Source of the DNA: an uncultured Candidatus Cloacimonadota bacterium
GTDB lineage: Bacteria; Cloacimonadota; Cloacimonadia; Cloacimonadales; TCS61
Reading direction: 5' to 3'
Length of the DNA stretch: 26,455 bases
Assembly (NCBI GenBank): GCA_964460095.1
Contig: CAYWPW010000001.1
Span: forward strand, 1-26,455
Shown: piece by piece, positions 1-13,990 of the stretch
Layout: each line of letters starts with the position of its first letter
How positions within the stretch are numbered: the first letter of the stretch is position 1
The notes under the pieces: generated by a model
The model's input: only the letters and a program-made list of their open reading frames with translations
The model's database searches: none
What the model was told of the DNA's origin: nothing
Program-made: the position numbers and the translations under genes

Positions 1-2
1 AC

Positions 3-1016
3 TACACAGGAGCAGCAATTTGTGCTACTTTAAGAGATGAAGTCCTGAATAGACCTGATCATATAAAAATTCTTGAACATCAACCTGTGGTGGAATTGAT
101 AAAAGATAATACCGGCAAAGTCTCGGGAGCAGTACTTTACCATCTTGAAAATAGAGAATACTTTACAGTGAAAGCAAAAGCAACTATTATCTCTACAGGT
201 GGTTTTGGCAGACTTCATATAAGAGATTTTGAAACTACAAACCATTATGGTGCAACCTGTGATGGTCCTGTGATAAGTTACAGAGCAGGAGCAAAACTTA
301 TGTATATGGATTCTGTTCAATATCATCCGACCGGAGCAATTTATCCACAGCAGATTATTGGATTTCTCTGCACTGAGAAACTCAGGTCTCTTGGTGCTCA
401 ACCTTTGAACATACAAAGTGAACTTTTTGTTAATCCTCTTGAACCCCGCGATGTTGAATCATCAGCTTTCATCAGGGAATGTTTGGAACGAAATAAAGGT
501 ATTAAAACACCTGATAACCATGTAGGTGTCTGGTTAGACACTCCCTTGATCGACCAGATAAATGGCAAGGGAACAATTCAAGCAAGTGTTCCGGCTATGG
601 TCAGACAATTTGCCAGGTTTGATGTAGATATGATTACGGAACCAATTCTGGTTTATCCAACTCTTCATTACCAGAATGGTGGAGTGGAAATAAATGCTCA
701 GTGTGAAACTAATATTCCCGGTCTTTTTGTAGCAGGTGAAGCATCCGGTGGAGTACACGGACGCAATAGATTAATGGGGAATTCACAGCTTGATATAATA
801 ATTTTTGGAAGAAGAGCCGGAAAATTTGCTGCTGATTATGCCAAAGGTGCAAAAATAGGTAAACTTAATCTGGATCATATTTATGAATATGAAAAAGAAG
901 TGAAAAAATTGGGGATCGATAAATCAAAAATTTCACCAATGGTTCTCCCTGATTATATTCCGGATGCAGTGAAAGCAAAACAACTTACAACCAAATATCA
1001 CGGAACTTTGAGATAA
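3..1016 (+). CDS. frdA: Fumarate reductase/succinate dehydrogenase-family flavoprotein (FrdA/SdhA/TfrA superfamily), 5'-truncated by the window edge, with a short C-terminus
   Basis: The frame is open from base 3 (YTGAAICATLRDEV...), so the ORF-track start at 87 is not the true start. Dicarboxylate-site motifs are present: QYHPTG, TEK, EPRD, PTLHYQNGG, GEASGGVHGRNRLMGNS. Confidence 0.85.
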   Translation, partial: YTGAAICATLRDEVLNRPDHIKILEHQPVVELIKDNTGKVSGAVLYHLENREYFTVKAKATIISTGGFGRLHIRDFETTNHYGATCDGPVISYRAGAKLMYMDSVQYHPTGAIYPQQIIGFLCTEKLRSLGAQPLNIQSELFVNPLEPRDVESSAFIRECLERNKGIKTPDNHVGVWLDTPLIDQINGKGTIQASVPAMVRQFARFDVDMITEPILVYPTLHYQNGGVEINAQCETNIPGLFVAGEASGGVHGRNRLMGNSQLDIIIFGRRAGKFAADYAKGAKIGKLNLDHIYEYEKEVKKLGIDKSKISPMVLPDYIPDAVKAKQLTTKYHGTLR

Positions 1017-1038: not shown

Positions 1039-2481
1039 TTGGGACTTGTAGATGTACAAAGGTTAAAAGAAATCGTAGGCGCAGAAAATGTAAAAGATGA
1101 CAAAGCCGATTTGTATGTATATGGTTCTGACTCATCAGTTCATCAAGCCATGCCCTGGGTAGTAGTAAGACCACACACAATAGAAGAAGTTCAAAATGTT
1201 ATGCGTTATGCAAATCCGAGGATGCTACCGGTTGTTGCCAGGGGAGCAGGCTCGGGTATGTCCGGTCAGGCTGTTCCCATCAAAGGTGGAATAGTAATGG
1301 ATTTTAAGAAAATGAATAAAATTCTTGAGATAAATCTTGAGGACACATTTGTCAGAGTTGAACCCGGTGTTGTGGATGATGATCTGAATCGTGCTTTGAA
1401 ACCACATAATGTATTCTATCCTCCAGCACCAGCTTCCAGCAGGATAGCTACGATCGGGGGAGAAATAGCCAACAATGCCAGCGGTGTGAGGTCTGTTAAA
1501 TACGGAGCTGTTCGGGATTCTGTTCTCGGTATGAGAGTGGTGCTGGCAAATGGAGATTTAATCGATGTTGGAGCTAAAACAAGAGTGCAGGCAACAGGCT
1601 ATCAGCTTGAAAGACTGATGGTTGGTTCCGAAGGCACCCTGGGTATTATTGTGGAAGCAACTCTGAAGATTGTTCCTATTCCTAAATTCAGATGCCTGGG
1701 AATAGCTAAATTCAATGAACTTGAAGATGCTGGTAATACAATTTCGGAAGTAATGTCCAGTGGGATTAATTTATCTATGCTGGAACTAATGGACAATATA
1801 GCTATTACTGCTGTTAATAAAGCTCTGGATTTGGGACTTCCGGATGTAGAAGCGATTCTTTTGTTTGAAGCTGACGGAATGGCAAAAGAAGCTGTTGATA
1901 TTGAAATCCAAAAAATAATTGAAATTTGTAAGAACCAAAAAGGTTTTGGTATCGATTTGAGTTATGATGCCAAAGAAAGAACAAAAATATTCTCCGGCAG
2001 GAAAAAATTGTTCCCATCTTTATCGAGATTTAAAGATTACTTTACTTGTGCATCTTTAGCTGATGATATGGCTGTCCCCTACTCTAAAATGGCAGAAACT
2101 GCCCAAAAGATTCATGAGATCGCTAAAAGAAATAATGTGATTATGACAGCTTACGGACACTGTGGTTCCGGATGTATGCATACCAAAATCCTGATGGATC
2201 CAAGAAAAGAAGCTCAATGGGAAGATGCCAAAAGAGCTGTATTCGAGATATATAATTATGTCAGATCAGTTGGAGGAACTACTTCCGCTGAACATGGGAT
2301 CGGAATATCAAAAGCTCCGGCATTTAAAAGAGAAAAATCTAACTCCTTAGGTGTAATGCGTGCCATAAAAAAGGCTTTAGATCCGAATAATGTATTAAAT
2401 CCCGGTAAGTTAATGGATGCACCGGATGATTGGGTTACTGCAACAAAATTGAGATATACTACAAAAAAAGGCATATTCTAA
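1039..2481 (+). CDS. FAD-linked oxidoreductase, GlcD/D-lactate (D-2-hydroxyacid) dehydrogenase family
   Basis: TTG start after AAGGAGG. Motifs ARGAGSGMSG, EPGVV, PAPASSRIATIGGEIANNASG, GSEGTLGII, GHCGSGCMH and SAEHGIG, plus DPNNVLNPGK near the C-terminus. Confidence 0.9.
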   Translation: MGLVDVQRLKEIVGAENVKDDKADLYVYGSDSSVHQAMPWVVVRPHTIEEVQNVMRYANPRMLPVVARGAGSGMSGQAVPIKGGIVMDFKKMNKILEINLEDTFVRVEPGVVDDDLNRALKPHNVFYPPAPASSRIATIGGEIANNASGVRSVKYGAVRDSVLGMRVVLANGDLIDVGAKTRVQATGYQLERLMVGSEGTLGIIVEATLKIVPIPKFRCLGIAKFNELEDAGNTISEVMSSGINLSMLELMDNIAITAVNKALDLGLPDVEAILLFEADGMAKEAVDIEIQKIIEICKNQKGFGIDLSYDAKERTKIFSGRKKLFPSLSRFKDYFTCASLADDMAVPYSKMAETAQKIHEIAKRNNVIMTAYGHCGSGCMHTKILMDPRKEAQWEDAKRAVFEIYNYVRSVGGTTSAEHGIGISKAPAFKREKSNSLGVMRAIKKALDPNNVLNPGKLMDAPDDWVTATKLRYTTKKGIF

Positions 2482-2527: not shown

Positions 2528-3112
2528 ATGGACTTTAAAAGAATTCAAAAATGGGATAATGAACTGAATATTTGCATTAGATGCGGATATTGCTTTGAAC
2601 AATGCCATCTTTTTAAGATTACTGGTTGGGAAACAGATGCTCCTCGTGGAAAGCTTATCTTGATCTATGGTTTAATACATGGAGAGACAAAACCATCAGA
2701 ATACATTGCAAATAAGATGTTTGAATGTTTCTATTGTAAAAGATGCGATAATAGTTGCTCAGCCGGAGTTTCCATAACTGATATTTTCACAGATGCAAGA
2801 GCTGATTTTGCGGATGCAGGTTTTGATGTTGATGGTACTACTTCAAAGACAAACGATGATTTGTGCAGCCGTTGTGGAATTTGTGTCTCAGTATGTAAAC
2901 ACGAAGCTCGCTCTCTGGATAAAGAGAATAAAAAGATTATAATTGATAAGGTTAAATGTCAGAGTTGCGGCTGCTGCGAAGCAGCATGTCCTTCCGGAGC
3001 TGCATATATTGTTGAAGGCTGGGAACTGGGAGAGAATGAATTGCGTGAAAAAGTGATCAATTTTTTAAAGGAAGATAATAATGAACCCAAAATCAGTAAT
3101 ATTTTGTTGTAG
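2528..3112 (+). CDS. Chimeric Fe-S protein: HdrC/HdrD/GlcF-type 4Fe-4S dicluster plus a 2x[4Fe-4S] ferredoxin resembling the HdrA C-terminal domain
   Basis: ATG at 2528 follows AGGAGA. Four Cys motifs: CIRCGYCFEQC, CFYCKRCDNSC, CSRCGICVSVC, CQSCGCCEAACP. Confidence 0.8.
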   Translation: MDFKRIQKWDNELNICIRCGYCFEQCHLFKITGWETDAPRGKLILIYGLIHGETKPSEYIANKMFECFYCKRCDNSCSAGVSITDIFTDARADFADAGFDVDGTTSKTNDDLCSRCGICVSVCKHEARSLDKENKKIIIDKVKCQSCGCCEAACPSGAAYIVEGWELGENELREKVINFLKEDNNEPKISNILL

Positions 3113-3479
3113 TTGGTCTTCATATCCTGGGTTACAGTTATCCGAAAGTCTTTATGAAGATCCCGGAAAACAAAACAATATAATCATAAGTATGTGCTCT
3201 GGTAGAGTTTCTGCAGAATTAATATTAGAAGCATTTAAAAATGATGCCTGGGGAGTAATGATAGCAAGTTGCCCAAAAGAGAAGTGTGAACATGATGCAA
3301 ATTACAAAACAAGAAGAAGGATTTTGTTACTTCAAAAAATGCTCGAGCAGTTAGGAATTGAACCTGCAAGAATAAAGCTTGAATGGATCGATAAAGGAGA
3401 AGCTGCTAAGCTGAAACTTGCGATCGATGATTTTTCAAATGAATTAAGAAAAATGGGACCTGTAAATATTATAAACTAG
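3081..3479 (+). CDS. mvhD: MvhD/FlpD [2Fe-2S] hydrogenase delta subunit
   Basis: FCCSWSSYPG, MCSGRV, SCPKEKCEH..N and LGIEPARIKLEWI match the MvhD family. The ORF overlaps the upstream gene by 32 nt and may be part of a fusion (see findings). Confidence 0.85.
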   Translation: MNPKSVIFCCSWSSYPGLQLSESLYEDPGKQNNIIISMCSGRVSAELILEAFKNDAWGVMIASCPKEKCEHDANYKTRRRILLLQKMLEQLGIEPARIKLEWIDKGEAAKLKLAIDDFSNELRKMGPVNIIN

Positions 3480-3492
3480 GAGTATATTTTTT

Positions 3493-4560
3493 ATGGAAAC
3501 AAAATATTTAAGACAATGGGAAAATGAACTTAATATTTGTATTAGATGTGGTTATTGTTTTGAGGGGTGCCCTGTTTTTAAGGAACTTGGCTGGGAAATA
3601 GATGGAGCAAGAGGTAAATTAATTGTAGCCTATGGATTACTGACTGGTGAGCTTGAACCTTCTGAACACATTGCAGAAAAGTTGTTTCAGTGTACTTTCT
3701 GTAGAGATTGCGTAGAAAGATGCTCAGCAGATATATCGGTGCCGGATATTATGGGAGCAGCCAGAGCTGATCTGTTTGAAGCAGGTTATTCTTACGACTC
3801 ACATAAAGAGCTCACAAAAAAAATTGAAAAGAGCGGCAATATCTTTGGAAAAGAACTTGAGCCTCCCGTATTTGAAGGTGATAAGGCGGTTCTATTAGGG
3901 TGCAGACTTGTTGAAAGAAAAGAAGATTCAGAGAAATATCTAACAATACTGGAAAAACTTGGAGTGAAAACAAAGACGTTTAATGAAACCTGCTGCGGTA
4001 TGCCATTTGCTGTTCTGGGTGATAAAAACGGTTTTAAAACTCAACAAGATAAATTTAGAGATACAATACCTGATAAAAAAGAAGAAGTAATTTGTGTTTG
4101 TACTACTTGTGTATTTTTTATCAGGGCAAAATATCCTGATTTGAAAGCTAAATATATAATTGATGAAATAGTGGAAAGATTGCCTGATTATAAAGGCAAA
4201 TTAAAAAAGTTAAACATTAAAGTAACATATCATGATCCCTGTAATGTAGCAAGGGGAATGGGTATGGTTGATGAACCCAGAGATATTCTAAAGAAAATTT
4301 GCTCGGAATTGGTTGAGATGCCTACTTACGGCAAGCAAGCTGAATGTTGCGGTGGTGGTGGGGGATTATTAGTATCAGATGATAAGTTAGCTGAAAAACT
4401 TGCTGAAAACCGTGTAGAACAAGCAATAGAAACCGGTGCAAAAGTTTTAACCACACTTTGTCCAACCTGCGAATTAAATCTTAAAAATGCTGCAGAAAAA
4501 TATAATGGAAAAATTAAAGTTAATAACCTTCTTGATCTTTTATACGATTCGATGATGTAG
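3493..4560 (+). CDS. HdrD/GlcF/TfrB-like Fe-S oxidoreductase with a 4Fe-4S dicluster and two CCG domains
   Basis: N-terminal CIRCGYCFEGCP and CTFCRDCVERC. Two complete CCG motifs: GC...TCCG...CTTC and HDPC...ECCGGGGG...CPTC. Confidence 0.88.
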   Translation: METKYLRQWENELNICIRCGYCFEGCPVFKELGWEIDGARGKLIVAYGLLTGELEPSEHIAEKLFQCTFCRDCVERCSADISVPDIMGAARADLFEAGYSYDSHKELTKKIEKSGNIFGKELEPPVFEGDKAVLLGCRLVERKEDSEKYLTILEKLGVKTKTFNETCCGMPFAVLGDKNGFKTQQDKFRDTIPDKKEEVICVCTTCVFFIRAKYPDLKAKYIIDEIVERLPDYKGKLKKLNIKVTYHDPCNVARGMGMVDEPRDILKKICSELVEMPTYGKQAECCGGGGGLLVSDDKLAEKLAENRVEQAIETGAKVLTTLCPTCELNLKNAAEKYNGKIKVNNLLDLLYDSMM

Positions 4561-4615: not shown

Positions 4616-5632
4616 GTGCCAAAACCTAAAGTAGCTTTTTATTGGTGTGCATCCTGTGGGGGTTGTGAAGAAGCCATTGTAGACCTGAATGAAGATATCC
4701 TGAAAGTAGTTGAATTGGTAGACATTGTGTTCTGGCCCTGTGCAATGGATTTCAAATATCAAGATGTTAGAAATATGAAAGACAATGAGATCACAGTTGC
4801 TTTTATAAATGGAGCTATCCGCACTGATGAGCAGGAAGAAATTGTACAACTTCTCAGGAAGAAAGCTCAACTTGTAATCGCTTTCGGATCTTGTTCTCAT
4901 CTGGGTGGAATCCCGGGATTAGCAAATTTCTGGGATAGAGAAACTATTTTTGAATCCTCTTATGGGAAGAATTGTCCTTCTGTTGATAACCCTAAAAGGA
5001 TTTTTCCACAAACAAAAAGTAAAGTTCCGGAAGGAGAACTGACTTTACCTGCTTTTCATAATACGGTAAAAAGCCTTGATCAGGTAATCGATGTGGATTA
5101 TTATATTCCCGGATGTTCTCCTGCACCATATTTAACAATGCAGGCGATAGAAGCTATTCTTGCTGGGGAATTACCAGAGAAAGGAACTGTTCTGGCTCCC
5201 TTAAAATCTTTGTGTGATGTTTGTGAACGTAATGATTCCAAACCGGAAAAAATTTCTCTGAATAAGATAAAAAGAATTTCCGAAGTAATAGCAGATCCTG
5301 AAAAGTGTTTTCTGGCTGAGGGGATTATCTGTTTGGGACCGGTTACCAGGGCAGGATGCGCTTCGGAAGGTAGTGGAAGATGTATCACAGCAAACATGCC
5401 ATGTAGAGGTTGTTATGGACCTCCACCAGAAGTAAAAGATGTTGGTGGAAAAATGATATCTTCTCTCGCTTCCATAGTAGGTTTGGAAGGTGAAGAAAAT
5501 ATGAGCGATGAAGATGTAGAAAAGCTTATTGATCAGATAGTTGATCCTGCCGGATATTTTTATCGCTTTTCTCTACCAGCTTCTTTATTAAGAAGAAAAA
5601 GGATGAATGATCCTGTAGCGGAGAATGAATAA
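4616..5632 (+). CDS. mvhG: Group 3c [NiFe]-hydrogenase small subunit MvhG
   Basis: GTG start after GGAGG. CASCGGC, GSCSHLGGIPG, PGCSP, CDVC, CLGPVTRAGC and PCRGCYG are present. Confidence 0.9.
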   Translation: MPKPKVAFYWCASCGGCEEAIVDLNEDILKVVELVDIVFWPCAMDFKYQDVRNMKDNEITVAFINGAIRTDEQEEIVQLLRKKAQLVIAFGSCSHLGGIPGLANFWDRETIFESSYGKNCPSVDNPKRIFPQTKSKVPEGELTLPAFHNTVKSLDQVIDVDYYIPGCSPAPYLTMQAIEAILAGELPEKGTVLAPLKSLCDVCERNDSKPEKISLNKIKRISEVIADPEKCFLAEGIICLGPVTRAGCASEGSGRCITANMPCRGCYGPPPEVKDVGGKMISSLASIVGLEGEENMSDEDVEKLIDQIVDPAGYFYRFSLPASLLRRKRMNDPVAENE

Positions 5633-5633
5633 A

Positions 5634-7097
5634 ATGGCTAAAAAAATAACAATAGATCCGATTACTAAATTAGAAGGTCACGGTAAAATAGAAATTTTCC
5701 TCGATGATGATGGAGATGTTAAGAATGCATATTTACAGGTTCCTGAATTGAGGGGATTCGAGCAATTCTGCGTGGGACGACCGGTAGAAGAACTGGCAAG
5801 AATAACTCCCCGCATTTGCGGTGTTTGCCCTACAACTCATCATCTGTGTTCAACTAAAACACTCGATGCTGTTTATAATGTTACACCAACAGATACCGCT
5901 GTAAAACTCAGACGACTCATCAACGATGCTTTTATTGCAGAAGATCATCTGCTTCATTTCTTCTTCCTGGGTGGTCCTGATTTTGTGGTCGGACCGGATG
6001 CTCCTCCCGGAGAAAGAAATATTCTGGGTGTTATCGGTAAGGTCGGTATTGAAATCGGTAAAAAAGTTATCGATATGAGAAGAAGGCTGCGAAGTATTAT
6101 CACCTATCTTGGTGGAAGAGTGATTCATCCTGTATGTGGTTTACCTGGCGGTATTTCAAAAGGATTACCGGAAGATCAGCGTTTAGCTTTTTTGAAAGTT
6201 GCTAAAGATGCCGTGGAATTTTCTAAGTTCTGTTTGCAGGTATTTGATGACATCGTTCTAAAAAATGATACTTACCTCGATTTAATTGTGGGTGATATTT
6301 TCAAACACCAAACTTATTACATGGGTCTGGTTGATGAAAATAACAAAGTTGATCTCTATGACGGGAAGATTCGAGTAGTTGATCCGAATGGAAAAGAATT
6401 TGTTAAATTTGAAGCAAAGGATTATCTGGATCATATTGTCGAGCATGTAGAACCCTGGAGTTATATTAAATTCCCATATTTAAAAAATATCGGTTGGAAG
6501 GGTTTTGTTGATGGAATCGACAGTGGTGTTTACCGTGTTGCTCCCCTGGCAAGACTCAATGCTGCTGATGGCATGAAAACCCCTCTGGCGCAGGCTGAAT
6601 ATGAAAAAATGTATGCTACCCTGGGAGGGAAACCTGCTCATAATACATTAGCTTTTCACTGGGCAAGATTGATAGAGGTTATGTATGTTTCTGAAGAGTT
6701 AGTTCAACTTCTTGAAGATAAATCAATCACAAATCCTGATATCAGGAATCTTCCTACAGAAACTCCAAGTGAAGGTGTTGGTGTTATCGAAGCTCCCCGG
6801 GGAACTTTGTTCCATCATTATAAAACAGATAAAAACGGTATGGTAACAAATGTAAATCTGATAGTGGCTACTGTTAATAATTCTGCTGCTATTTCCATGT
6901 CTATTGCCAAAGCTGCAAAAGGGCTGATCAGCAAAGGTAAAGTCGATGATGGACTTTTGAATATGGTGGAAATGGCTTTTCGATCTTATGATCCTTGTCT
7001 TGCTTGTGCAACGCATTCTTTGCCGGGGAAAATGCCTCTTATCGTAAATCTTCGCGATAACAACAAGGATATAGTTAAATCTATTAGAAGAGATTAG
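5634..7097 (+). CDS. mvhA: Group 3c [NiFe]-hydrogenase large subunit MvhA
   Basis: IDPITKLEGHGKI N-terminus, L1 motif RICGVC, EAPRG, and L2 motif FRSYDPCLACATH followed by a cleavable C-terminal extension. ATG 5634 is preferred over 5625. Confidence 0.93.
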   Translation: MAKKITIDPITKLEGHGKIEIFLDDDGDVKNAYLQVPELRGFEQFCVGRPVEELARITPRICGVCPTTHHLCSTKTLDAVYNVTPTDTAVKLRRLINDAFIAEDHLLHFFFLGGPDFVVGPDAPPGERNILGVIGKVGIEIGKKVIDMRRRLRSIITYLGGRVIHPVCGLPGGISKGLPEDQRLAFLKVAKDAVEFSKFCLQVFDDIVLKNDTYLDLIVGDIFKHQTYYMGLVDENNKVDLYDGKIRVVDPNGKEFVKFEAKDYLDHIVEHVEPWSYIKFPYLKNIGWKGFVDGIDSGVYRVAPLARLNAADGMKTPLAQAEYEKMYATLGGKPAHNTLAFHWARLIEVMYVSEELVQLLEDKSITNPDIRNLPTETPSEGVGVIEAPRGTLFHHYKTDKNGMVTNVNLIVATVNNSAAISMSIAKAAKGLISKGKVDDGLLNMVEMAFRSYDPCLACATHSLPGKMPLIVNLRDNNKDIVKSIRRD

Positions 7098-7105
7098 CTT
7101 TTTTA

Positions 7106-7561
7106 ATGAAAACACTTGTTTTAGGATTGGGAAATACGATTTTAACTGATGATGGAGTAGGAATAAGGGTAGCACAAAAAATAAAAGAAAGATGTAAAAA
7201 TGTCGATGTCTCCGAAGCCAGCGCTGCTGGCTTCAGAGTTATAGACGAGATAATTGGTTACGATAAACTTATTTTAATTGACTCAATAAAAACCGGAAAA
7301 TCTGAACCCGGAAAGCTTCATAAATTTACTTTTGAAGAATTCAAAAAAACAAGACATCATGCTCAACCACACGACATCAGCCTATTTGAAGCTTTTGAGA
7401 TCATTAAACAACACGGAGATAAATTACCTTCTGAAATTGAAATTTATGCCGTGGAAGTTAGTGATACATCTACTCTTTCTGAAACATGCACAATGGAAGT
7501 TGAAGCTTCTATTCCAAAAATATCTCAAAAAATCATTGATGAACAATCACTCTTTAAATAA
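7106..7561 (+). CDS. Hydrogenase maturation protease (HyaD/HycI family)
   Basis: LVLGLGNTILTDDGVG, LILIDS and H..H motifs. It lies directly after mvhA. Confidence 0.9.
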   Translation: MKTLVLGLGNTILTDDGVGIRVAQKIKERCKNVDVSEASAAGFRVIDEIIGYDKLILIDSIKTGKSEPGKLHKFTFEEFKKTRHHAQPHDISLFEAFEIIKQHGDKLPSEIEIYAVEVSDTSTLSETCTMEVEASIPKISQKIIDEQSLFK

Positions 7562-11515: not shown

Positions 11516-12070
11516 ATGGCTAAAGAAATACATTTACAGACTCCACTAAAAGATGAAGATCTGGAAAAACTCAATATTGGTGACAAGGTTCTCATTACGG
11601 GAACCGTGTACACAGCACGCGATGCTGCTCATAAAAGACTTGTTGACTTAATAGAAGCAGGAAAAGAGCTTCCTTTTGATATTAAAGGACAGATAATCTA
11701 TTTTGTCGGTCCTGCTCCTGCTAGACCGGGAATGCCTATCGGTTCAGCAGGTCCCACAACTAGCTACAGAATGGATTCCTATTCCCCAATTCTTCTGGAT
11801 GAAGGCTTAAAAGGGATGATTGGAAAAGGACCCAGAAGTAAAGAAGTCATTAATTCAATGATAAAAAATAAAGGCGTGTATTTTGCGGCAATCGGTGGAG
11901 CTGCAGTTGTAATGGCTCAATCCATAAAAGCTGCAAAAGTGATAGCTTATGAAGATCTTGGAACGGAAGCGATAAGAGAATTGAAAGTGGAAAACCTACC
12001 ATGCATTGTTGCAAATGATGTTTATGGTAATGATTTATTTGATGAAGGAGTTAAAAAATACAGAAAATGA
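11516..12070 (+). CDS. fumB: Fe-S class I fumarate hydratase, beta subunit (FumB/TtdB family)
   Basis: TARDAAHKR, GPTTSYRMD, GKGPR and EDLGTEA motifs. It is adjacent to the alpha subunit. Confidence 0.88.
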   Translation: MAKEIHLQTPLKDEDLEKLNIGDKVLITGTVYTARDAAHKRLVDLIEAGKELPFDIKGQIIYFVGPAPARPGMPIGSAGPTTSYRMDSYSPILLDEGLKGMIGKGPRSKEVINSMIKNKGVYFAAIGGAAVVMAQSIKAAKVIAYEDLGTEAIRELKVENLPCIVANDVYGNDLFDEGVKKYRK

Positions 12071-12107
12071 AATTCTTGTTCCCAAGTTTGACTTGGGAAC
12101 AAGAATT
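12071..12107. repeat. REP-like palindrome, family member 2 (perfect 17-bp stem)
   Basis: AATTCTTGTTCCCAAGT-TTG-ACTTGGGAACAAGAATT starts immediately after the fumB stop codon. It shares the CTTGTTCCCA...TGGGAAC core with 22128-22154. Confidence 0.8.
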
Positions 12108-12125
12108 ATCAAACAAGGAGGTATT

Positions 12126-13049
12126 ATGGAAAAAGTTTCAATTATTGGTAGTGGGAATGTTGGAACCGCAGCAGCATTCTATATAGCGGAGAAGTGTACT
12201 GCGAATATTATGCTAATTGACATCTTAGAAGGAAAAGCTGAAGGTAGCGCTTTGGACCTTGCAGAAGCTTCTCCACTACGTGATTATGATATTAAAATCG
12301 AAGGATCTTCAAACATTGAAGATATCAAAGATTCCAAAGTAGTTGTAATAACTGCTGGAAAAGTGAGAAAACCTAATACATTACGACTTGAACTTCTAGA
12401 AGAAAACGTAAAAATTATCGACCCGATAATCAAAGACATCAAAAAATATGCGCCTGATTCAATCGTTATTATTCTTACAGAACCAATAACATCAATGACA
12501 TATTATGCTTGGAAAAAATTAGGTTTCGATCGACAAAAAGTTCTTGGTGTTGCTGGCAAATTAGACGTTGCCAGAGTTTGTGAATTCGTCTCTCAGGAAC
12601 TCAAAGTGACTCCTGTTGAAGTTAGCGCACTTGTACTTGGAGGTCATCACAAATTTATGGTAATTCCACCTGAGTTTATAAGAGTGTGCGGTATTCCAAT
12701 AAACGAACTGATTCCTAAAGACCGTGTTGATCAAATCATCACTAAAGTTAGAGAAGCCGGAACTGATATTCTTACATTACTCAAAAAACAAACCTCCATG
12801 TATTCTCCAGGTGCTGCTATAGCTGAAACCGTCGGTGCGATCATTAATGACACAAAAGCAATTCTTTGCGTTCCAACTTGCCTTGAAGGTGAATACGGAT
12901 TCAAGGACTTATGTTTGGGTGTACCCGTACAAATAGGGATAAATGGTATTGAAAAAATTATTGAATTAGAACTCTCCCTTGATATTAAGGAGAAACTTCA
13001 AATCTCTGCTGATGTGATAAAGAAAACCATTGAATCTTTGGGAATATAG
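12126..13049 (+). CDS. Divergent LDH-like malate dehydrogenase paralogue
   Basis: ATG 12126 follows AAGGAGG; the ORF-track start at 12006 lies inside fumB. IIGSGNVG, TAGKVRKP..LR, LDVAR and LGGH are present, but the conserved TNP motif reads TEP. Confidence 0.8.
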   Translation: MEKVSIIGSGNVGTAAAFYIAEKCTANIMLIDILEGKAEGSALDLAEASPLRDYDIKIEGSSNIEDIKDSKVVVITAGKVRKPNTLRLELLEENVKIIDPIIKDIKKYAPDSIVIILTEPITSMTYYAWKKLGFDRQKVLGVAGKLDVARVCEFVSQELKVTPVEVSALVLGGHHKFMVIPPEFIRVCGIPINELIPKDRVDQIITKVREAGTDILTLLKKQTSMYSPGAAIAETVGAIINDTKAILCVPTCLEGEYGFKDLCLGVPVQIGINGIEKIIELELSLDIKEKLQISADVIKKTIESLGI

Positions 13050-13057
13050 GAGGAACC

Positions 13058-13990
13058 ATGAAAGTTAGTATAATTGGAAGCGGAAATGTTGGTGTTGCCT
13101 GTGCACTTTATTTGGCAGAAAAGCGTGTTTCGAATATTGTTTTAATCGATGTTGTAGAAGGCTGGGCAGAAGGTAAAGCAATGGATATTGTACAAGCTTC
13201 TCCGATTCGACGATATGATGTTTTTATCAATGGCTATTCTGATATCAGTATGATAAAAGATTCTGAGGTGGTTGTAGTCACAGCAGGTAAGCCAAGATTA
13301 CCTGGCATGTCCAGAGAAGATTTACTGCGTGATAACGTAAAAATTATGAAAAATGTTTCAGAAAGCATCGCCAGATATGCCCCGAATTCAATCGTCATCA
13401 CTGTTACAAATCCTCTTGATATTCTGGCTTATGTAGCTTTGAAAGTTACAGGTTTTGCATTGAAGAAAGTTATTGGTATGGCCGGAATACTTGATTCTTC
13501 AAGATTTAGATATTTTATTGCCCATGAACTTGGAGTAAGTCCTAAAAATGTTACTGCTCTTGTATTAGGTGGTCATGGTGATTTGATGGTACCTTTACCG
13601 CGATATTCAACAGTTCATGGAATTCCGGTTTCAGAACTTTTACCAAAAGCAAAAATTGATAAACTAATAGAACGCACCCGCAAAGCCGGTGGTGAAATTG
13701 TGGCATATCTCAAAACTGGTAGTGCGTATTGGTCACCTGGTAGCTCGGCAGCAGAGATGGCTGAATGCATAGTTCGTAATAGAAATAGAATAGTACCTTG
13801 CTCAGCATATCTAAGAGGAGAATACGGAATTGACGGTTTGTTTGCTGGTGTTCCAATCAAAATCGGTAGAAATGGAGTTGAGGAAATAATCGAATTGTCA
13901 CTCACTACTGAAGAAACACAAGCCCTACATCTTTCAGCTGAAAAAGTAAGGGAAGTTATTGAAAAAATCGAAGCGGAAAAACTTATTTGA
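13058..13990 (+). CDS. mdh: Malate dehydrogenase (NAD, LDH-like tetrameric type)
   Basis: IIGSGNVG, TAGKPRLPGMSREDLL (both substrate Arg residues), VTNPLD, LDSSR, LGGHGD. Confidence 0.93.
   Translation: MKVSIIGSGNVGVACALYLAEKRVSNIVLIDVVEGWAEGKAMDIVQASPIRRYDVFINGYSDISMIKDSEVVVVTAGKPRLPGMSREDLLRDNVKIMKNVSESIARYAPNSIVITVTNPLDILAYVALKVTGFALKKVIGMAGILDSSRFRYFIAHELGVSPKNVTALVLGGHGDLMVPLPRYSTVHGIPVSELLPKAKIDKLIERTRKAGGEIVAYLKTGSAYWSPGSSAAEMAECIVRNRNRIVPCSAYLRGEYGIDGLFAGVPIKIGRNGVEEIIELSLTTEETQALHLSAEKVREVIEKIEAEKLI

Follow-up and report, generated by a model that had tools for sequence, protein, structure and literature searches.

Two genes that lie side by side in a hydrogenase gene array of a Cloacimonadota bacterium, one for a poly-ferredoxin (gene A) and one for an MvhD/FlpD-type iron–sulfur subunit (gene B), are very probably separate, intact, overlapping genes, an ordinary arrangement inherited throughout the lineage, and not one fusion gene broken by a frameshift or restored by recoding. 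A fused product here is neither needed nor indicated. The two genes would be co-transcribed, and their products would be paired electron-transfer subunits within a soluble Mvh-type [NiFe] hydrogenase module, which is predicted to be connected to a thiol-type (Tfr-like) fumarate reductase of this salt-lake bacterium. Throughout, "the window" denotes the whole stretch of DNA that was analyzed, 26,455 nt in length.

Gene structure and joinability of the pair

The features of the junction are as follows.

2528–3112, forward strand: gene A, poly-ferredoxin, 194 aa; start ATG at 2528, stop TAG at 3110–3112
3081–3479, forward strand: gene B, MvhD/FlpD-type iron–sulfur subunit, 132 aa; its own ATG
3081–3112, forward strand: A/B overlap, 32 nt; B lies at +1 relative to the frame of A
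3068–3074, forward strand: Shine–Dalgarno-like AAGGAAG inside the coding sequence of A, ending 6 nt before the ATG at 3081
3077–3109, forward strand: run-on tail of A, residues 184–194 (NNEPKISNILL), lineage-specific and unconserved as protein

The C-terminus of A reads ...KVINFLKEDNNEPKISNILL before its stop, and the N-terminus of B reads MNPKSVIFCCSW; the TAG that ends A (3110–3112) spans the codons for Cys10 and Ser11 of B (TGT AGT). A reading of this DNA made earlier from the letters alone, which we refer to as the sequence-only reading, had described the pair as a single fusion protein split by one extra base. Its description of the junction was accurate in that A and B occupy different frames, with B at +1 across the 32-nt overlap at 3081–3112, and in that AAGGAAG (3068–3074) precedes the ATG at 3081. 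It was also correct that removing one base near 3095 joins the frames, but this is true anywhere in 3078–3112. Deleting base 3094 or 3095 gives the joined frame ...NNEPKIVIFCCSW, and the loss of any one base within 3078–3112 leaves an uninterrupted open reading frame (ORF) of 316 aa, in which the junction, KIVIF, is similar to the consensus K-L/I-I/V-V-F of fused homologues. Since any two genes that overlap on the same strand in different frames can be joined by one base, joinability is no evidence of a lesion. The single reading frame that characterizes a fused ferredoxin–MvhD protein is absent from the window and from all of its clade relatives. Overlaps between genes on the same strand are usually 1–4 nt long, and the 32 nt seen here are longer.

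Gene B encodes a complete MvhD-type subunit

The product of B matches the FlpD/MvhD profile PF02662 over positions 2–123 of 123 (Pfam; E = 1e-33, 116.3 bits, cut-off 22.3), and its residues 2–129 align to residues 5–133 of the solved MvhD 5odc_D (E = 2e-26). With the profile spanned and residue 2 already aligned to residue 5 of the structure, B is complete on its own. Residues 2–12 of B (NPKSVIFCCSW) align column for column with EPKIIGFCCNW of 5odc_D, whose N-terminal region reads ...EPKIIGFCCNWCTY, and Cys9, Cys10, Cys39, Cys64, and Cys69 each face a cysteine of that protein in the alignment. The third cysteine of CCNWC is replaced by serine in the window and throughout the fused and split family. 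The ATG at 3081 is the sole start codon in the open stretch of the B frame; under the two-gene model, the N-terminal peptide of B would be (M)NPKSVIFCCSWSSYPGLQLSESLYEDPGK. As in the setting of MvhD, B adjoins genes for the small and large subunits of an Mvh-type [NiFe] hydrogenase on the same strand.

This alignment contradicts the claim that the hallmark EPKI of MvhD sits in the frame of the upstream gene, as it is B in its own frame that matches 5odc_D. The B codons ATG-AAC-CCA-AAA-TCA, read one base early, become (G)AA-CCC-AAA-ATC; proline and lysine are present in both frames, and the A frame adds only the E and the I relative to the B frame. Since the codons of B dictate these letters, the "EPKI" in the tail of A is a by-product of the B codons for N-P-K-S and carries no independent signal.

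Gene A is a poly-ferredoxin

The product of A consists of two dicluster modules, a GlcF/HdrC-like one at residues 12–81 (Pfam Fer4_8) and one at residues 108–160 (Pfam Fer4_7, with the profile match itself at 113–158) that is like the C-terminal ferredoxin domain of HdrA. Residues 93–159 match residues 564–632 of the HdrA chain 5odc_A in the PDB. On the NCBIfam model HdrA2 (NF040770), residues 99–189 of A align to positions 565–650 and residues 2–129 of B to positions 647–775; following one another on this model, the two genes are collinear with a known ferredoxin–MvhD fusion.

Split junctions in relatives and the origin of the overlap

Relatives were gathered by a scan of species-representative genomes followed by tblastn, and a conserved-anchor search yielded one extra locus (L097); a degenerate DNA pattern for the N-terminus of B had no match in metagenome contigs. 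Genes in two frames, as in the window, occur in L012, which is of the window's species (96% identical), in L026 from Candidatus Cloacimonadota NIOZ-UU4 (A 80%, B 67%), and in L045–L053 from WOR-3, Gemmatimonadota, Fermentibacteria, one Thermoplasmatota bin, and other bacteria. The window, L012, L091, L026, and L095 form a clade in which every member is split, and this clade is monophyletic in 50/50 bootstraps of a neighbor-joining (NJ) tree of concatenated A and B.

The form of the junction varies among these loci. At L026, A ends ...KFLKGVVV and the stop and start share a 4-nt ATGA overlap (GTATGA), after which B reads MNPKAVIFCCNW, with AAAGGAG upstream; the same overlap of 4 nt is found in L094, L047, and L051, and L045 has one of 8 nt. 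In L095 and L096, A ends ...FLKGA and a 1-nt spacer stands between its stop and the ATG (TAG-T-ATG in L095). The first in-frame GTG lies one base past the stop of A in L048 and L050, where further in-frame GTGs make the exact start ambiguous. The 32-nt overlap itself is common to the window, L012, L092/L093 (B 89% identical), L091 (B ~72–73%), and L097. A start of B at or inside the end of A, on the same strand and with a Shine–Dalgarno-like site in A, is conserved in relatives, where this site reads AAAGGAG, AAGGAG, or CAGGAGG at the same place. Across the clade, an AGGAG-type motif is conserved 6–9 nt upstream of the B start; the AAGGAAG of the window is weaker than the AGGAG of its relatives, and most window genes have AGGAG or GGAGG at −8 to −15. 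B would be translated from the ATG at 3081, aided by this internal site, and, to judge from the arrangement of the sequence, coupling to the translation of A probably also helps.

DNA alignment shows that a single 1-nt indel, ~5 nt upstream of the ATG, separates L026 and L094, which are in the ATGA phase, from the window, L091, and L095. In the latter phase, the codon at 3077–3079 is AAT in the window, GAT in L091, and TAG in L095. The simplest history of the overlap that these sequences suggest is the loss of the A stop codon at 3077–3079, with the direction of change (stop loss versus the 1-nt indel relative to L026) resting on few outgroup sequences. In the clade ancestor, two genes would already have met at a tight junction, either overlapping in an ATGA or with a single base between the stop and the ATG. 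The window sublineage would then have lost the stop of A, with TAG becoming AAT or GAT, and A would extend in the −1 frame relative to B by 11 unselected residues until it meets the TAG supplied by the conserved Cys–Ser codons of B (TGT AGT). For a frame that is non-coding, reading on for ~10 codons is nothing unusual. In relatives with CCNW, the position of the TAG of A would read TAA.

These junctions bear on the possibility that a fused ferredoxin–MvhD gene was recently broken by a 1-base insertion near 3095 and rescued by a fortuitous ATG at 3081, as the sequence-only reading had proposed. Fused homologues of 309–345 aa are indeed common and collinear with A and B with no gap at the junction, and a one-base deletion restores the 316-aa ORF with its consensus-like KIVIF. 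However, the split is common to relatives down to ~64–67% identity in B, which have clean stop/start junctions and an MNPK-type start; the split in the window lineage predates that divergence. The only indel in the clade lies ~5 nt upstream of the ATG and not at 3095, the A frame downstream of the ATG is unconserved, and the nearest fused protein is just 59% identical in its B part. With the split clade-wide (50/50 bootstraps) and canonical junctions in the outgroups, and with L026, L094, L095, and L091 each in contradiction to it, we regard a recent fission as very unlikely.

The reading frame under selection

The overlap can be compared between loci in both frames. Between the window and L091, the B frame has four synonymous changes (AAC/AAT, AAA/AAG, TCA/TCG, AGT/AGC) and two V/I swaps, whereas the A frame has no synonymous and six non-synonymous changes. 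The tail of A and the start of B read as follows.

Window: A tail EPKISNILL, B start MNPKSVI
L091: A tail ESKVDSVLL, B start MNPKSIV
L097: A tail GSEVDRVLL, B start MDPKSIV

Within the 90% identity cluster of A, the tail also varies from P to S and from K to E, which by the genetic code would be synonymous third-position changes in B. Because the changes are synonymous or V/I swaps in B and all non-synonymous in A, selection acts on the B frame from the ATG onward, with the tail of A a free-riding read-through in which EPKI is not conserved.

The same comparison weighs on programmed +1 frameshifting at CCC-A or AAA-A, which would make a fused A–B protein, alone or beside the separate products. 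This idea, raised by the sequence-only reading for CCC-A, draws on the position of B in the +1 frame of A, on the CCC and AAAA runs in the overlap, and on the fact that fused proteins are functional elsewhere. Yet no slippery motif is conserved (GAA CCC AAA ATC in the window, GAA TCC AAA GTC in L091, GGA TCC GAA GTC in L097), no rare or stop codon stands at the putative shift site, and four A residues are too short for transcriptional slippage. B keeps its own conserved ATG and Shine–Dalgarno-like site, while the A frame is unconserved past the ATG, as the three tails show. In sister lineages, B lies in the other phase or its ATG is preceded by an in-frame stop, and a single shared frameshift would therefore not work for all of them. 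Programmed recoding, alone or beside the separate products, is highly improbable. It is similarly improbable that low-level +1 slippage on CCC-AAA-A yields a minor fused A–MvhD isoform beside the two subunits, although the joined reading aligns without gaps with fused homologues, which leaves such a product a small probability. If it did exist, this isoform would tune the tethering of the hydrogenase to the Tfr-like fumarate reductase, and would represent a natural step between the split and the fused forms that are found in different phyla.

The junction in independent assemblies

Two separate genes are also what independent data contain. The identical 194-aa and 132-aa proteins have entries in NCBI, JGI, ENA, Logan, and MetaClust; they occur in 44 collection blocks and on at least 24 contigs, and all of the 24 contigs that were read show the same overlapping pair of gene calls. 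The stretch was found in 24 salt-lake metagenome runs. The 90% identity cluster of A holds 24 distinct variants, and among the 15 listed, all are 194 aa long save one, which starts further upstream and has 203 aa. Four of the runs were examined through their Logan contigs, which as contigs cannot show minority variants; these had substitutions only and no indel across 2900–3300. A sequencing or assembly error that put an extra base into a truly fused gene, which the sequence-only reading had also allowed for and to which the short homopolymers CCC, AAAA, and TTTT in the overlap could lend themselves, has a negligible probability, since at least 24 contigs, drawn from independent assemblies (JGI, ENA with MEGAHIT, Logan, and NCBI MAGs, of many samples), carry the same split, and since diverged relatives with different nucleotides have the same architecture. 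The interruption is neither a lesion of one assembly nor an unconserved state, as would be seen in an artefact or a pseudogene; a true indel-ridden assembly, L054, has three frame changes inside one gene.

Fused and split forms across the family

The sequence-only reading was right that fused ferredoxin–MvhD proteins exist. With the joined A and B as query, which biases the ranking toward fused proteins, 119 of the 120 best matches are single proteins of 309–345 aa with 52–60% identity over 90–100% of the query, and the lone split entry is the window's own cluster. Some of these fused matches are annotated as hydrogenase iron–sulfur subunits of Thermoplasmatales or Woesearchaeota. They align with no gap at the junction, with the consensus ...LKxxxxxKLIVFCCNWS, and are collinear with A and B throughout. 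Genes in a single frame were found in Thermoplasmatales, Dehalococcoidia/Chloroflexota, Acidobacteriota, Myxococcota, and Desulfobacterales. A representative search with A clustered at 50%, which gives no census of fused versus split forms, leaves a handful of proteins, fused (327, 320, and 316 aa) and split (188 and 191 aa).

With B alone as query, all 98 matches are stand-alone proteins, 92 of them full length (125–160 aa, 49–95% identity) and six shorter fragments. Thirty stand-alone cluster representatives are nearer to B than any fused protein, the best of which has 59% identity in the B part. The closest stand-alone homologues (at least ~60%) mostly start M-[N/D/T/I]-[P/T/S]-[K/R]-[S/A/T]-[V/I]-[I/V]-F-x-C-[N/S]-W, and the N-termini of the nearest ones are alike (MNPKSVIFCCSW, MNPKAVIFCCNW, MNPKTIIFSCNW, MIPKAIIFCCNW, and MDTKAIIFCCNW); more distant ones retain only the hydrophobic-FxCNW core. 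The distance from the initial Met to FxCNW is equal in most full-length matches, with a minority having longer N-terminal extensions. The survey of homologues has two sides: the closest are consistently encoded as a pair of genes in which the MNPK start is conserved, but fused forms are found among more distant relatives.

A single fission event behind every split form was considered and rejected, as all split forms are monophyletic in just 1/50 bootstraps of the NJ tree. By the same figure, fusion or fission happened several times across the ferredoxin–MvhD family. An archaeal origin had been suspected from the Thermoplasmatales among the best fused matches; it was likewise set aside, the nearest genomic relatives being Cloacimonadota-type bacteria. 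What survives of the proposal that a dicluster-ferredoxin–MvhD fusion is the ancestral or functional product is its first half, as a remote ancestor may plausibly have been fused; as the functional form here it fails, with the split found throughout the clade.

Gene neighborhood and electron path

The pair is part of an array of genes on one strand, in the order TfrA-like, GlcD-like, A, B, TfrB/HdrD-like, MvhG, MvhA, and HycI. The genes around A and B are as follows.

1–1016, forward strand: TfrA-like fumarate reductase flavoprotein, 3' part (555 aa in full), Pfam FAD_binding_2
1039–2481, forward strand: GlcD-like FAD-linked oxidase, 480 aa
3493–4560, forward strand: TfrB/HdrD-like protein with two CCG domains, 355 aa
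4616–5632, forward strand: MvhG/VhuG-type [NiFe] hydrogenase small subunit
5625–7097, forward strand: MvhA/VhuA-type [NiFe] hydrogenase large subunit
7106–7561, forward strand: HycI-type hydrogenase maturation protease

A fuller copy of the flavoprotein in L001 matches NCBIfam TfrA with E = 4e-95. The N-terminal 109 aa of the TfrB/HdrD-like protein are 53% identical to the N-terminus of A. After HycI come genes for succinyl-CoA synthetase, fumarase, malate dehydrogenases, and malic enzyme, and also for a PEPCK-like protein, citrate synthase, aconitase, and isocitrate dehydrogenase.

In the Mvh–Hdr complex, the C-terminal ferredoxin domain of HdrA takes electrons from MvhD. As a module of A resembles this domain, we infer a likely path from H2 to fumarate, in which electrons would pass from H2 through MvhAG to the [2Fe-2S] cluster of MvhD (B), then to the [4Fe-4S] clusters of A, and from there through the TfrB-like and TfrA-like proteins to fumarate. 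The modules of A and of MvhD work as a physical pair, as the fused versions in other phyla show. Because these modules are fused in some lineages and split in others, with several independent changes between the two states, they provide "Rosetta-stone" evidence for a direct physical partnership, which here connects an Mvh-type hydrogenase with a Tfr-like fumarate reductase within a cluster of TCA-cycle genes. The pair is also a cautionary case. Overlapping neighbors in different frames are always "repairable" by one base, and the apparent motif in the upstream frame consists here of the codons of the downstream gene read one base early.

Comparison with known systems

This type of cluster is already in the literature for Cloacimonadota from an Antarctic lake. 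A cluster of thiol:fumarate reductase (TFR), Mvh, Hdr, fumarase, and succinyl-CoA synthetase genes was described in Ca. Celaenobacter from Ace Lake, for which an H2-driven reverse TCA cycle was proposed (Williams et al. 2021, PMC8542988). That cluster and the window share a thiol:fumarate reductase, a group 3c Mvh hydrogenase, and an Hdr-like protein, along with fumarate hydratase and succinyl-CoA synthetase (PMC8542988); the A/B junction is not discussed in that paper (Williams et al. 2021). One contig identical to the window at the A/B locus comes from metagenome 3300025586, which was used in the same study (PMC8542988), and the window would appear to belong to Ca. Celaenobacter.

The closest parallel to B by itself is the MvhD of the Mvh–Hdr complex (5ODC chain D; also 8RVU, 9SW2, and 7BKB). 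The two have in common an N-terminal PK-x-x-x-FCC(N/S)W and the motifs MCSGR and C-x4-C-(E/H)-(H/Y), and both are stand-alone proteins of ~130–140 aa encoded beside MvhG and MvhA. They differ in that MvhD has CCNWC where B has CCSWS, in their neighbors, which are TfrA/TfrB-like and GlcD-like for B and HdrABC for MvhD, and in their hosts, a bacterium for B and a methanogen for MvhD.

For the pair as a whole, two kinds of fused protein offer a comparison. The first, known as [quoted passage not shown] proteins of 309–345 aa, have the same domain order as A and B and, in Thermoplasmatales (SG8-52 and AB-539-N05), Chloroflexota, Acidobacteriota, and Desulfobacterales, show 41–60% identity over 90–100% of A and B. 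These are single ORFs, whereas the clade of the window and at least two other clades, of the WOR-3 type and of the Gemmatimonadota/Fermentibacteria type, have two genes. The second is HdrA2 of the Methanosarcina type (NF040770), a natural HdrA–ferredoxin–MvhD fusion in which the modules follow in the same order as in A and B, ferredoxin and then MvhD. Compared with HdrA2, the pair in the window is without the HdrA flavoprotein body and its parts are separate genes, and A instead bears a GlcF/HdrC-like dicluster module at its N-terminus.

A Fer4_8 module common to two proteins of the operon

The 194-aa poly-ferredoxin encoded next to MvhD resembles, over its N-terminal ~109 aa, the N-terminus of the TfrB/HdrD-like protein encoded downstream, with 53% identity between the two segments (window 2528-2854 vs 3493-3819). 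The matching segment of the ferredoxin is its GlcF/HdrC-like Fer4_8 module, and because of this level of N-terminal identity, the comparison of the two sequences points to a duplication of the module within the operon. Immediately before the ferredoxin/MvhD pair lies a further gene:

1039-2481, GlcD-like FAD-linked 2-hydroxyacid oxidase, flanked by the TfrA-like gene on one side and the ferredoxin/MvhD pair on the other

The synteny of this gene is kept in two related loci, L091 and L095, and probably in a third, L026, where the assignment is by an ORF's matching length and position.

Variant loci in relatives

Several related loci depart from this arrangement. At L094 (104-852), the ferredoxin is truncated to 117 aa, comprising the HdrA-like dicluster module without the Fer4_8 module, and is linked to MvhD via an ATGA overlap; LarA-like and PEPCK genes stand 3' of MvhD, in place of hydrogenase genes. 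The lineage of L095 and L096, which is related to that of the window, carries a gene for a small nucleotidyltransferase (NTP_transf_2/Polbeta, 111 aa) between MvhG and MvhA (L095 3949-4284, L096 3823-4158) and has no TfrB-like gene at the corresponding position. At the Thermoplasmatales loci L011, L014, L016, L018 and L020, in which the ferredoxin and MvhD are fused, extra stand-alone MvhD-like genes flank the fused gene, one ~1.5 kb upstream and another immediately downstream, and there are therefore several MvhD paralogues per locus.

Irregular reading frames at other loci

In a split locus from a candidate division WOR-3 bacterium (L046, 6539-6600), the MvhD-frame ORF contains no ATG, GTG or TTG from the preceding stop to the FCCNW motif, which is itself conserved. 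Initiation in this frame could use a non-canonical codon, either ATT or ATA; alternatively, the genome could carry a genuine frameshift. In the Acidobacteriota MAG MFD05942 (L054, 6001-6882), tblastn recovers the homologue as three separate segments, whose frames are 1, 3 and 1, and the homologue looks like a fused gene with assembly indel errors; it contrasts usefully with the window, where the split is clean and conserved.

A metabolic supercluster across the window

One same-strand metabolic supercluster spans nearly all of the window (1-26455), in the following order:

First part: TfrA-like, GlcD-like, ferredoxin, MvhD, TfrB/HdrD-like, MvhG, MvhA, HycI
After HycI: SucC/SucD, TPR protein, class I fumarase alpha and beta, two malate dehydrogenases
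After the malate dehydrogenases: LarA-like protein, PLP enzyme, malic enzyme, PEPCK-like protein
Last part: citrate synthase, aconitase, IDH, second TPR protein

The malate dehydrogenases are a tandem pair of malate/lactate dehydrogenase paralogues:

12006-13049, first paralogue, listed start TTG, 65-nt overlap with the fumarase beta gene
13058-13990, second paralogue

Since the Pfam match of the first paralogue begins only at residue 43, its true start is probably downstream of the listed TTG. The gene content of the window is compatible with a TCA cycle linked to H2 (and run in reverse), which has already been proposed for Ace Lake Cloacimonadota (PMC8542988).
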